Below, piece after piece: positions 33,225-35,652 of a DNA stretch of 64,000 nt. The notes beneath the pieces are model-generated. The model searched no databases. It had not been told where the DNA came from and saw only the letters and a program-made list of their open reading frames with translations. Source of the stretch: Thermoplasmata archaeon. GTDB taxonomy: Archaea; Thermoplasmatota; E2; JACPAO01; JAHFTW01. A program made the position numbers and the translations under genes. The DNA lies in contig JAXDQS010000005.1 in NCBI GenBank assembly GCA_034667725.1, positions 1 through 64,000 on the forward strand, written 5' to 3'. Positions within the stretch are counted from its first letter, which is position 1. Every line of letters begins with the position of its first letter.

Positions 33225-33607
33225 GCGACAAGAAGGGCATCGCGCACATCTTCGCGAGCTACAACAACGTCCTGATCACCGTGACCGACGCCACCGGCGC
33301 CGAGACCATCGCCAAGGCCTCCGGCGGCATGGCCGTCAAGTCCGACAAGGACAAGGGCGGCCCGTTCGCGGCCATGAGCGTTGCGCAGCGCATCGCCGAG
33401 GCCCTCAAGGAGAAGGGCTTCACCACCGTCGACATCCGCGTCCGCGGCTACGGCGGCAACAAGGCCCGCAGCCCCGGCCCCGGCGCCCAGGCCGCCATCC
33501 GTGGCCTGGCCCGCAACGGCATCCTGGTCGGCCGCATCGAGGACGTCACCCCGATCCCGCATGACGGCTGCCGCAAGAAGGGCGGCCGCCGCGGCCGCCG
33601 CGTGTGA
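33221..33607 (+). CDS. rps11: 30S ribosomal protein uS11
   Basis: [29 protein letters not shown]. Confidence 0.98.
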
Positions 33608-33620
33608 GCGGAGGCATCCC

Positions 33621-34409
33621 GTGAAAATCGAGATCAAGCACATCACCGACCGCGAGTGCAAGCTCGTCGTGGACGGCGTCCACCCGTACTTCGTCAACGC
33701 CCTGCGCCGCACCCTGCTGTCGGAAGTCCCGAAGCTGGCCGTCGACAAGGTGACGTTCTACGACAACACCTCCGCGCTGTTCGACGAGATCATCGCCCAC
33801 CGCATCGGCCTGCTCCCCGTCCCGACCGACCCGTCCACCCTGAACCTCATCGGCCAGGCGGACGCCGACGGCAAGCCGACGTACGTCGTGCGCTACACCC
33901 TCACCAAGGAAGGCCCGTGCACGGTGTACAGCGGCGACCTCGAGCCCGAGGACAAGAAGTTCGCCATCGTCGACCCCAAGGTCCCGATCGTCGAGCTCCT
34001 GGCCGACCAACGCCTCATCCTCGAGGCCGAGGCCGTCCTGGGCCAAGGCACGCAGCACGCCAAGTGGCAGGTCTGCTCCGCTGTCGGCTACAAGTACTTC
34101 CCGACGGTCACGATCGACGCCAAAAAGATCAAGCCGGAGCAGGCCCAGCTGGCGGTCCAGCGCAGCCCCGCCGGCATCCTCGGCGTCGACAACGGCAAGC
34201 TCGTCGTCCTCCAGATGGACGAGGTCAACCGCGCCGACGAAGCCGAGAAGATCCTCGGCGACGGCTTCCGCATCAAGTACGACGACCGGAAGTTCGTGTT
34301 CCGCTTCGAGACCGACGGCTCCCTCAAGGCCGAGGACGCCCTCATGAAGGCCCTCGACCTCCTGAAGGAGCGGTTCGAGCGCTTCCAGGAAGCCGCCAGC
34401 GACCTGTAA
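33621..34409 (+). CDS. rpoD: RNA polymerase subunit D (Rpo3)
   Basis: GTG start; NALRRTLLSEVP, DEIIAHRIGLLP, HAKWQ, FETDGSL. Confidence 0.96.
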   Translation: MKIEIKHITDRECKLVVDGVHPYFVNALRRTLLSEVPKLAVDKVTFYDNTSALFDEIIAHRIGLLPVPTDPSTLNLIGQADADGKPTYVVRYTLTKEGPCTVYSGDLEPEDKKFAIVDPKVPIVELLADQRLILEAEAVLGQGTQHAKWQVCSAVGYKYFPTVTIDAKKIKPEQAQLAVQRSPAGILGVDNGKLVVLQMDEVNRADEAEKILGDGFRIKYDDRKFVFRFETDGSLKAEDALMKALDLLKERFERFQEAASDL

Positions 34410-34505: not shown

Positions 34506-34587
34506 GCACAGGTAGTCAAGTGGCCAACGACGGGAGGTTCAGGGCCTCCTTCTTCGTGATTCGCAGGTTCGAATCCTGTCCTGTGCA
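34506..34587 (+). tRNA. tRNA-Leu(CAG), no encoded CCA
   Basis: Acceptor GCACAGG/CCTGTGC+A; D arm GTC..TGG..GAC; anticodon arm GGAGG-TTCAGGG-CCTCC; long variable region; T arm GCAGG-TTCGAAT-CCTGT. Confidence 0.93.
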
Positions 34588-34588
34588 C

Positions 34589-34988
34589 TAAGCAAGGGTC
34601 GCTGCGCGAAGCGCCAGCGCCCGGTCCTGGAGTGTTGGACAGGATTCGCCGAGCGATGCGAAGCGAGCGAGGAATCCCTGCGCGACCGAAGGGAGCGCAG
34701 GGTCGAATCCTGTCCTGTGCACTCCAACAGCCAGCGATGCGCAGCGAGCGGTGCTGCGGAGTCGCACAGGGCAGGATTCGCCGAGCGACGCGAAGCGAGC
34801 GAGGAATCCCTGCGCGACCGAAGGGAGCGCAGGGTCGAATCCTGTCCTGTGCACTAGAACAGACAGACGTGTGCGCGCAGCGCCACACGCTGGTTTCGAA
34901 GGGCTGGGCAGGATTCGCCGAGCGCCGCAGGCGCGAGGAATCCCTGCGCGACCGAAGGGAGCATAGGGTCGAACCCTGTCCTGTGCAC
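34589..34988 (+). repeat. Array of three 83-86 bp structured repeats, each ending in the tRNA-Leu 3' end, separated by unique ~46-51 bp hairpin spacers
   Basis: Units 34637-34722, 34769-34854, 34906-34988; period 134/132/134 bp from the tRNA 3' end. Confidence 0.92.
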
Positions 34989-35088
34989 CTCGCCAACGTG
35001 CGTGGCCGCCCGCCAAGAGCAGGACCCACGGTTGAGGGCGGCGCCCCCCTTGGAGGAGACATTTTGTGCAGGACCCTGTGGCGCATCC

Positions 35089-35652
35089 GTGGCCTGGCTG
35101 GAGTTCGCCTCCGCGTTCCTTCTCGTGCTCGTCGCGGAGTTGGGCGACAAGACGCAGTTGGCCGTCGCCGTGATGGCGGTACGCGGCAGAGCCCTCCAAG
35201 TCTTCGCCGGCGCGGCCGCCGCGTTTCTCGTGTTGACGTTGCTTGCGGTGACGCTGGGCGCGGCGGTCGCGAGCGCCGTTCCGGCAAAGTGGACCAACCT
35301 CGCGGCGGGTCTGCTGTTCCTAGGCATGGGGGCGCTGGCCTTCTTGCGCAAGGATGACAAGGAGGCGGAAGAACTGGTCCGAGGCGCGACAATGGGCAGC
35401 GCGTTCTTGGCCGTGGCCTTGGCGGAGTTCGGGGACAAATCGCAACTGGCGACGAGCGCACTCGCCGCGCAAGGGGATGCCTTCCTCGTGGGCTTGGGCG
35501 TCCTGCTTGCCCTGTTTGTGAACGCCGCCTTGGCCGCGGTCTTAGGAGCCAAGCTCTTGTCCCGTCTGCCGGCGCGGACGTTGAAGGTTGTCTCTTGCGC
35601 TCTGTTCCTGGTCGCCGGAGCCTGGTTGCTTGCCGCGGCAGCCGCCGGTTAG
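35089..35652 (+). CDS. TMEM165/GDT1 (UPF0016) Mn2+/Ca2+ transporter
   Basis: Two signature motifs ELGDKTQL and EFGDKSQL; six TM segments; GTG start at 35089 inferred. Confidence 0.9.
   Translation: MAWLEFASAFLLVLVAELGDKTQLAVAVMAVRGRALQVFAGAAAAFLVLTLLAVTLGAAVASAVPAKWTNLAAGLLFLGMGALAFLRKDDKEAEELVRGATMGSAFLAVALAEFGDKSQLATSALAAQGDAFLVGLGVLLALFVNAALAAVLGAKLLSRLPARTLKVVSCALFLVAGAWLLAAAAAG

Follow-up and report, generated by a model that had tools for sequence, protein, structure and literature searches.

Gene-less hairpin cassettes with target-matched arms behind tRNA genes and protein-gene ends in a family of Thermoplasmatota

In a stretch of 64,000 nucleotides from a Thermoplasmata archaeon (GenBank assembly GCA_034667725.1, contig JAXDQS010000005.1, positions 1 to 64,000 of the forward strand; hereafter termed the window), the gene for tRNA-Leu(CAG) is followed by an array of three structured units, each of which starts with an inverted copy and ends with a direct copy of the 3' end of the tRNA. 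We find that these units are members of a family of cassettes devoid of genes, whose arms match the respective target, which are missing from orthologous sites in some relatives, which share a fixed left border and which, at the ends of protein-coding genes, are accompanied by end copies of the replacement type. With moderate confidence, we attribute the array to the serial insertion of such miniature cassettes by an attachment (att)-type reaction, in which each cassette would bring along a replacement for the end of its target. A serial integration of mini-cassettes had already been considered in a first-pass annotation of the window made from its sequence alone, and this proposal is now supported by the occurrence of the family behind tRNAs of 19 species and at protein-gene ends, by the empty orthologous sites and by the replacement-type end copies.

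Under this interpretation, mobile DNA that is invisible to annotation pipelines would be carried by roughly one in four tRNA genes of this archaeon (~12 of ~45) and by many in its relatives. The elements would define a gene-less class of ~130 bp, which is adapted to its respective target and supplies a new end to the invaded gene, and which could account for the recurrent signals of partial tRNAs and for the duplicated gene ends in archaeal genomes. The 3' flanks of tRNAs would then be recombination hot spots, where synteny breaks exactly, and the existence of the family would suggest a recombination activity, be it a hitherto unknown one or one borrowed from an integrase. With its invariant junction motifs and a freely variable stem matching the target, the three-way junction formed by the units lends itself, as a small natural substrate, to direct tests of programmable site-specific insertion.

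Architecture of the array behind tRNA-Leu(CAG)

In the following, the source genome is labelled G000, with the window residing on its contig C5, and its relatives are labelled G001 onwards. G000 comprises 2.32 Mb with a G+C content of 71% at 90% completeness, and the sequencing run containing the stretch is a soil metagenome. The target gene tRNA-Leu(CAG) (34506..34588, + strand) is called by ARAGORN and scores 47.8 bits with the tRNA model of Rfam. Its T-arm and the 3' strand of its acceptor (34562-34588) constitute the first copy of the repeated end, which resembles the units over up to 27 nt. On the same strand, spacers and units alternate further downstream: spacer S0 (34589..34636), a hairpin module centred on GCGAAGC (34606-34612), precedes unit 1 (34637..34722), spacer S1 (34723..34763) precedes unit 2 (34764..34854) and spacer S2 (34855..34905) precedes unit 3 (34906..34988), with the modules of S1 and S2 both built around GCGCAGC. 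Each unit contains, in this order, an inverted arm, a hairpin A, a linker, a hairpin B and a copy of the tRNA tail. In unit 1, the arm extends over 34637-34648, hairpin A over 34649-34672, hairpin B, after the linker AAT, over 34676-34702 and the tail copy over 34703-34722. The corresponding parts are found at 34764-34780, 34781-34804, 34808-34834 and 34835-34854 in unit 2 and at 34906-34917, 34918-34938, 34942-34968 and 34969-34988 in unit 3. Hairpin A consists of a stem framed by CCGAG and CGAGG with a GNA loop and is followed by AAT throughout this array.

The tail copy of 20 nt (TCGAATCCTGTCCTGTGCAC) ends at 34722 and 34854, and a version with one mismatch (TCGAACCC...) ends at 34988, which, when the tRNA end at 34588 is counted in, results in a period of 134, 132 and 134 bp, close to the 132 bp assigned by Tandem Repeats Finder to the region 34640-34988. 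The inverted arms GGACAGGATTCG (unit 1, 12 nt), GCACAGGGCAGGATTCG (unit 2, 17 nt) and GGGCAGGATTCG (unit 3, 12 nt) are complementary to the T-loop and the 3' strand of the tRNA, with the longer arm of unit 2 extending to the acceptor strand and including one G-T pair. The layout described in the first-pass annotation, with three units, tail copies, inverted arms and the stated period, is thus correct in every detail. All units are predicted to fold as three-way junctions with energies between -41 and -60 kcal/mol and z-scores between -2.5 and -8.0 (-46.9 kcal/mol and z -6.05 for unit 1, -59.5 kcal/mol and z -8.0 for unit 2, z -2.5 for unit 3). The identity between units 1 and 2 amounts to 97.7%, and that of unit 3 to either of them to 88-91%. 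Besides being the most decayed unit, unit 3 carries one mismatch and one wobble pair in hairpin B and a change of T to C in the T-loop part of its tail copy, which disrupts the pairing with its own arm. The polarity that had been suspected at the outset, with the strongest decay in the unit farthest from the tRNA, is found here and in other arrays, including the array behind tRNA-Leu(TAG) of the same genome and those of G008, G012 and G013.

The spacers (41-51 nt) differ in sequence, and reading and folding both confirm that each contains a hairpin centred on GCGAAGC or GCGCAGC, as had been noted initially. They are 60-63% identical to each other compared to 49.6 +/- 4.2% among shuffled spacers, and their hairpins by themselves are no stabler than those of shuffles (z -0.4 to -1.3). 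The combination of near-identical units 1 and 2 with dissimilar spacers would best be explained by gene conversion, which would act between the long homologous units, or by the insertion of related cassettes that differ in a fast-evolving first hairpin. Open reading frames listed across the array are spurious and GC-rich, and oligo-T is absent from its interior, with the first TTTT appearing at ~35061. ARAGORN calls only the true tRNA, the units do not match the Rfam tRNA model at E-values up to 10, and no Rfam family was found in a search with the array units.

Since contigs assembled in Logan from run X1 bridge the junctions from the tRNA via S0 to unit 1, from unit 1 via S1 to unit 2, from unit 2 via S2 to unit 3 and from unit 3 to the downstream sequence with zero differences, the array is not an assembly artefact, a possibility that had been considered in the first-pass annotation. 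X1 is probably the source sample, and the comparison would in this case reflect the work of a different assembler on the same reads. Runs X2-X4 match only the tRNA and the conserved gene parts of other organisms and carry no information on variation of the array.

The alternation of conserved repeats with dissimilar segments of 41-51 nt and the distal location of the oldest unit resemble the layout of a CRISPR array, and the units had initially been described as CRISPR-like with unique spacers. The likeness ends with this layout. With a length of 83-91 nt and a branched structure, the repeats fall outside of the ~23-50 bp of CRISPR direct repeats, Cas1 was not found in the 90%-complete genome and none of the spacers matches a sequence in collections of phages, plasmids and viral contigs, which are poor in viruses of this lineage. 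In relatives, the spacer turns out to be a short self-folding module with a shared core of the type GAGCG(N)AGCGAG, which is conserved across species and duplicated intact in some arrays that carry identical spacers. It is hardly conceivable that the array serves to store segments of invaders between tRNA-derived repeats, and the CRISPR-like designation has to be abandoned.

A cassette family with a conserved fold

For the identification of further copies, we have built a covariance model from 11 units, which assigns 94.4, 92.1 and 98.6 bits to units 1, 2 and 3 of the window. Matches were found in 15 of 32 genomes of the same family within the Thermoplasmatota and in none of six genomes from two sister families. 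Of the 62 copies collected in this way, 48 share the strand of a tRNA located at most 520 nt upstream, with 19 tRNA species represented, five are found at protein genes and the remainder is mostly cut by contig ends or placed after partial tRNA ends. The arm matches the local target in every case. Across the family, cassettes have a size of 110-140 bp (~133 bp in the array of the window) and contain no open reading frame. Hairpin A is followed by a WAT linker, and hairpin B is variable and G-rich on its 3' side. The repeated end ranges from 17 to 44 nt and always reaches the end of the gene, with 16 nt of trailer added in one case. A repeat of variable length that ends with the gene fits the identity blocks of att sites and not a fixed staggered cut. 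In some members, oligo-T is found between tRNA and cassette or within the duplicated end.

Equivalent arrays behind other tRNAs, which the first-pass annotation had suggested to look for, are present within the source genome and in its relatives. In G000, two further units follow tRNA-Leu(TAG), with an arm (GGGGCAGGATTCG) that pairs with the tail CGAATCCTGCCCC, and one further unit follows tRNA-Pro(GGG). In total, ~12 of the ~45 real tRNA genes of G000 are followed, at a distance of 70-270 nt and after hairpin-rich inserts, by another copy of their tail. These tRNAs are distributed over contigs C3, C4, C5 and C10 (e.g. C3:223583-223840, C3:236019-236228 and C10:349920-350122). A second type of cassette in G000, found at tRNA-Lys-CTT, Asn and Gln-TTG, ends with ...CCTCGCCG|AATCC, and the tRNA-Tyr of this genome displays a perfect duplication of 44 nt, which includes 16 nt of a pyrimidine-rich trailer. 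We also observed armless variants (L075, L083 and L103) behind tRNA-Ala, tRNA-Lys and another tRNA end, in which hairpins A and B are flanked only by TGG...TCCA or CGG...TCCG and which may represent a basal form of the cassette. Two candidates were set aside: a gene islet of 1 kb at tRNA-Met (C5, ~88.2-89.3 kb) lacks the arm/hairpin junction in front of its repeat and is an insert of a different kind, and the tRNA-Gly of 89 nt called by ARAGORN at G000:C6:57750-57838 is located inside a coding region and constitutes a false positive. The same program calls a tRNA-Leu of 95 nt at G000:C2:27139-27233.

The predicted fold is under constraint, and this on one strand. In 61 distinct copies, 93.9% of the cells in paired positions are able to pair, 23 of 24 pairs have changed on both sides and 313 cells are compensatory, values that are inflated by the fitting of the alignment to the covariance model and that exceed the controls by a very large margin: none of 500 shuffles attains the observed numbers and slid partners pair in 33-48% of cells. 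On the tRNA-sense strand, G-U or U-G cells outnumber A-C or C-A cells by 85 to 11, and this strand folds more stably than its complement when modelled with RNA parameters (in 55 of 57 copies) and when modelled with DNA parameters (in 54 of 57). The 114 hairpin loops include 64 triloops, of which 43 are of the C-GNA-G type, which dominates over GNRA or UNCG tetraloops, and tandem G-A pairs are found within the stems (CCGAGC over GCGAGG). Exceptionally stable structures in single-stranded DNA are known for GCGNAGC mini-hairpins (PMC13037366) and for d(GNA) loops with a closing C-G pair (PMC3201870), and by analogy the GCGNAGC and C-GNA-G loops hint at a folded DNA strand. Tetraloops of the G(CTTG)C type, which occur 11 times, would suit RNA equally well.

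The same properties bear on an alternative that we regard as improbable and that follows the other option of the first-pass annotation, a transcript cut by tRNA-processing enzymes. The units would here be parts of a structured RNA that is transcribed together with tRNA-Leu, and RNase P, RNase Z or the splicing endonuclease would release RNAs of ~130 nt from it, with these RNAs or the trailer serving in processing control, 3' protection or tRNA mimicry. Such a role would agree with the constant tRNA-sense orientation, with the strong covariation and the tolerance of G-U pairs on the sense strand, with the 11 G(CUUG)C-type tetraloops and with the lack of oligo-T within the array of the window. 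It is at odds with the presence of the same cassette at the ends of protein genes, and once at the beginning of an oppositely oriented gene, with the oligo-T that in some members separates tRNA and cassette or forms part of the duplicated end, and with the prevalence of C-GNA-G triloops over GNRA and UNCG tetraloops. Moreover, the presence of the cassette varies among congeners, which implies that it is dispensable, and the units neither belong to an Rfam family nor are they detected by tRNA models.

Replacement ends, empty sites and a proposed insertion mechanism

The most informative targets are protein genes, where the origin of the duplicated end can be read from its codons. The end of an acyl-CoA dehydrogenase gene carries cassettes in G002 (two in tandem), G008, G009 and G011, as does a paralogue in G013, and the end of an A/V-ATPase subunit gene carries one in G007. 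In each case, the final 8-11 codons and the stop codon are duplicated. In 16 of 17 codons that differ between the end copies, the change is synonymous or from stop to stop, with the lone exception located at the border, and the distal copy in G009 encodes ...KGT*, a natural variant that is present in other congeners. These near-purely synonymous differences indicate that both copies have evolved as coding ends, a pattern which would not be produced by duplication at a staggered cut followed by neutral decay. In G002, the sequence that directly follows the distal copy is homologous to the region behind the intact gene in G007. Its connection to ancestral downstream DNA identifies the distal copy as the old chromosomal end and the proximal copy as the one that arrived with the cassette. 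Among 13 congeners, the acyl-CoA dehydrogenase end is filled in four and empty in nine. One cassette in G002 (C9, ~204.4 kb; L113) is located at the start of a gene that is encoded on the opposite strand and duplicates its first codons (MAKIA versus MATIA), and gene 3' ends are thus not the sole targets.

The left border of the cassettes is exact to the nucleotide. It is located after the G-rich end of hairpin B, which is followed by TC, as illustrated by the sequence ATGG|TCATCGC in five diverged cassettes, and its counterpart at tRNAs is T55 of the T-loop (...GGG|TCGAATCC). In combination, replacement ends, repeats of variable length and a fixed border match an att-type site-specific integration with restoration of the target gene.

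At the locus in the window, the tRNA is preceded by a gene encoding a protein resembling the archaeal RNA polymerase subunit D/Rpo3 (33381..34409, + strand; Pfam RNA_pol_L and RNA_pol_A_bac), and the array is followed by a gene for a cation transporter of the GDT1/UPF0016 family (35056..35652, + strand; Pfam GDT1). In tblastn searches, the linkage of rpoD to tRNA-Leu(CAG) is kept in eight relatives, and no match to the GDT1-family gene was found beside the orthologous tRNA in nine relatives. On the 3' side of the rpoD-linked tRNA, synteny is broken in all nine relatives examined, which carry between none and about three copies of the cassette, with the cassette lacking in three of the nine (G001, G004 and G011). 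The breaks of downstream synteny at the tRNA mark its 3' side as a variable hot spot. By analogy to the protein targets, the tRNA array of the window presumably arose in the same manner.

In the mechanism that we propose, a cassette would comprise, in order, its own copy of the tail, reaching from TCGAATCC in the T-loop to 1-2 nt past the discriminator, a spacer module, the arm, hairpin A and hairpin B. The exchange would take place at a fixed point, the start of the T-loop, in an att-type reaction, after which the gene would be completed by the end borne on the cassette and the previous end would be displaced downstream. The tail of the present tRNA would in this scenario stem from the newest cassette, and the copy at 34969-34988 would be a displaced older end, an assignment that fits the decay of the distal unit. 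Arrays may grow by repeated insertion combined with unequal crossing-over or gene conversion among units, with the most distal copy being the oldest and decaying. During the reaction, the tRNA-sense strand would fold as a single strand, probably of DNA, in which arm and end copy would imitate the duplex target, and the enzyme would be a recombinase acting in trans, with a tyrosine integrase as the most straightforward candidate. In kind, the cassettes could be viewed as integrative DNA with site specificity, of which only a folded att site is left.

A bolder version of this proposal, which we consider unlikely, assumes an undescribed archaeal recombination system, in which a gene-less element specifies its target by carrying it along as a folded single strand. 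Arm and end copy would pair into a stem that replaces the duplex site, a recombinase of the host or of a helper would bind to the conserved CCGAG/CGAGG-WAT junction and exchange strands where the copy begins, within its first bases, and tRNA genes together with some protein-gene ends would serve as integron-like platforms for the stacking and swapping of spare ends.

An origin without any recombinase, by template switching or fold-back synthesis, by staggered-cut transposition or by illegitimate recombination facilitated by homology with the DNA of relatives, appears quite improbable to us. It would be in line with the failure to find a dedicated enzyme, and a flanking sequence present as inverted and direct copy is the expected product of fold-back synthesis, with arm and end copy matching almost perfectly, which is suggestive of templated copying. 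Such processes would leave unaccounted for a repeat that varies in length and always stops at the end of the gene, coding-end copies that differ synonymously, a left border that is exact to the nucleotide in diverged cassettes and core motifs (CCGAG...CGAGG-WAT) that are kept across targets.

The search for an enzyme and the relation to known systems

Several observations weigh against the insertion of cassettes by a recombinase or restrict its scope. The evidence for replacement ends comes from protein targets in relatives and not from the tRNA array of the window. The pairing of the arm favours the upstream copy of the end over the downstream one by a small margin (22 versus 15 differing positions), which constitutes a weak lean, and the excess of G-T pairs could in part originate from strand-biased deamination rather than from selection. 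No enzyme tied to the cassettes was identified. In G000, the tyrosine-integrase profile PF00589 yields a single weak match of 27 bits on a contig other than that of the array. In the same 90%-complete genome, no match was obtained for the Y1 transposase (PF01797; control positive in six genomes) and for Cas1 (PF01867; control positive in seven known genomes), for IS110 no match was found above the cutoff and for the TnpB-type model Cas12f1-like_TNB three matches remain below it. The searches with Viral_Rep, Rep_1 and Y2_Tnp gave no match in G000 and are uninformative, as their controls were positive nowhere. Across the family, the number of integrases neither follows the number of cassettes nor does it separate cassette-rich from cassette-free genomes. 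Neither a free or circular form nor gain or loss at the strain level was seen in contigs of the one DNA run covering the locus, and a duplex circle of 133 bp is physically awkward. Finally, the proposed insertion does not account for the way in which arm and end copy are rewritten to fit another target. The near-perfect complementarity of the two suggests a templated step.

The weak integrase match of G000 and an integrase of G012 are found next to tRNAs. The match in G000 (within C10:25500-29500) ends right at the 3' end of tRNA-Pro(TGG), akin to an int gene beside attL, and no second copy of the tail of this tRNA was detected in the G000 assembly. In G012 (C2, ~141.1 kb and 179.4-181.1 kb; L096 and L097), a gene encoding a tyrosine integrase of 391 residues is located directly upstream of tRNA-Gln(TTG) in divergent orientation, with two cassettes following downstream of the tRNA. 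A partial copy of this array without the body of the tRNA is found in inverted orientation at a distance of 39 kb. This arrangement suggests an inversion between repeats and hints at their being recombinationally active.

Arrangements of this kind could equally be read as scars, where the units would be the att-flanking remnants of a large integrase-bearing virus or plasmid that has lost its interior and the mini-units themselves would never have been mobile. Although tRNA 3' ends are classic integration sites that retain partial tRNA copies (PMC9897764), islets without integrase are found at other tRNAs of G000, where an integrase abuts tRNA-Pro(TGG), and G012 contains an integrase beside a cassette-bearing tRNA-Gln with an inverted partial array 39 kb away, we assign a low probability to this scenario. 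Independent deletions would not be expected to yield the same tight junction between spacer and arm and the same size of 110-140 bp at dozens of targets in many species, the hairpins have, unlike what scars would show, remained paired despite extensive divergence and the 1-kb islet at tRNA-Met is devoid of the junction. In addition, we found neither a full-length element with cassette halves at its two ends nor, in viral contigs, the core motif of the family. The comparison of the spacers with viral and plasmid sequences, which had been recommended in the first-pass annotation, did not reveal a source in phages, plasmids or viral contigs either.

Our preferred interpretation as miniature cassettes inserted in trans places the family close to integrase-mediated att elements. 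The T-loop is a known sublocation for the exchange catalysed by integrases. Elements with tyrosine integrases in archaea and bacteria generate partial tRNA duplications at attL and attR (Reiter 1989, Williams 2002, as cited in PMC9897764). As in these elements, the direct repeat of the cassettes reaches from the inside of the tRNA gene to its end, the incoming DNA restores this end, the block of identity is variable and 3' ends of protein genes are targeted likewise. They also share with them the combination of a target-end repeat with an intact gene and a presence or absence with clean empty sites. Compared to the 9-23 kb of the elements in PMC9897764, the cassettes measure ~110-140 bp and carry neither an integrase of their own nor any other gene, they fold into a three-way junction with an inverted target end and a pair of conserved hairpins and a single family covers at least 19 tRNA species in addition to protein genes.

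A folded att site is not without precedent, as exemplified by the attP of CTX-type phages, which is used by Xer. Integrons with an attC that is folded as single strand are known from archaea (bioRxiv 10.1101/2022.02.06.479319 / PMC9668308). Similar to integron arrays, the cassettes are arranged in tandem at one platform, their units are alike with differing intervening segments and end in an imperfect palindrome with variable inner structure, the predicted fold is strand-specific in its stability and wobble pairs, no recombinase gene is contained in the cassette and the pattern of decay points to the addition of new units proximal to the platform. They differ from integrons by the lack of R''/R' boxes (RYYYAAC/GTTRRRY), with GTTGGAC found only once, at unit 1, by chance, and by a stem that copies the local target. 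Also, no intI gene adjoins the array, the cargo is a hairpin of 20-50 nt without an open reading frame and the repeated segment measures 17-44 nt compared to a core of 7 nt.

Being small, gene-less and GC-rich hairpins at gene ends, which are found in many copies and vary between relatives, the cassettes resemble repetitive extragenic palindromes (REP), bacterial interspersed mosaic elements and miniature inverted-repeat transposable elements (MITE). Unlike MITE and REP, their termini are copied from each target, they do not create a target-site duplication of fixed length and they carry a functional replacement of a gene end. In contrast to repeats that depend on REP-associated tyrosine transposases (RAYT) or are derived from IS200/IS605, a RAYT or Y1 transposase was not found in the genome in a search with PF01797. 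A different parallel concerns the fold: the T-shaped inverted terminal repeats of adeno-associated virus, a parvovirus, and the origins of HUH nucleases form a three-way junction from a long stem with two small inner palindromes. The units share with these termini the three-way junction, the GAGC-type repeats beside it and loops that are very stable in single-stranded DNA, for which we claim no homology. Unlike these termini, they are chromosomal inserts and not genome ends, and no Rep or HUH match was obtained, with uninformative controls for Viral_Rep, Rep_1 and Y2_Tnp. In the literature we found no description of such cassettes, with integrase-made partial tRNA genes (PMC9897764) and archaeal integrons (PMC9668308) being closest.

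The core of hairpin A also occurs in simple palindromes of relatives. Its exact sequence (CCGAGCGCCGNAGGCGCGAGGNAT) is contained in 117 stretches from soil metagenomes. In the 80 of these 117 loci that were returned, none of the occurrences is located within 600 nt of a tRNA, and the core mostly resides inside another, abundant palindromic repeat (TGTCATC-core-GATCTGCTTTT...GATGACA) on contigs with ~63-70% G+C. This repeat belongs to no Rfam family and has not led to a parent element. The presence of the core in other palindromes implies that the hairpin A module predates the tRNA-linked cassette or is more widely distributed.

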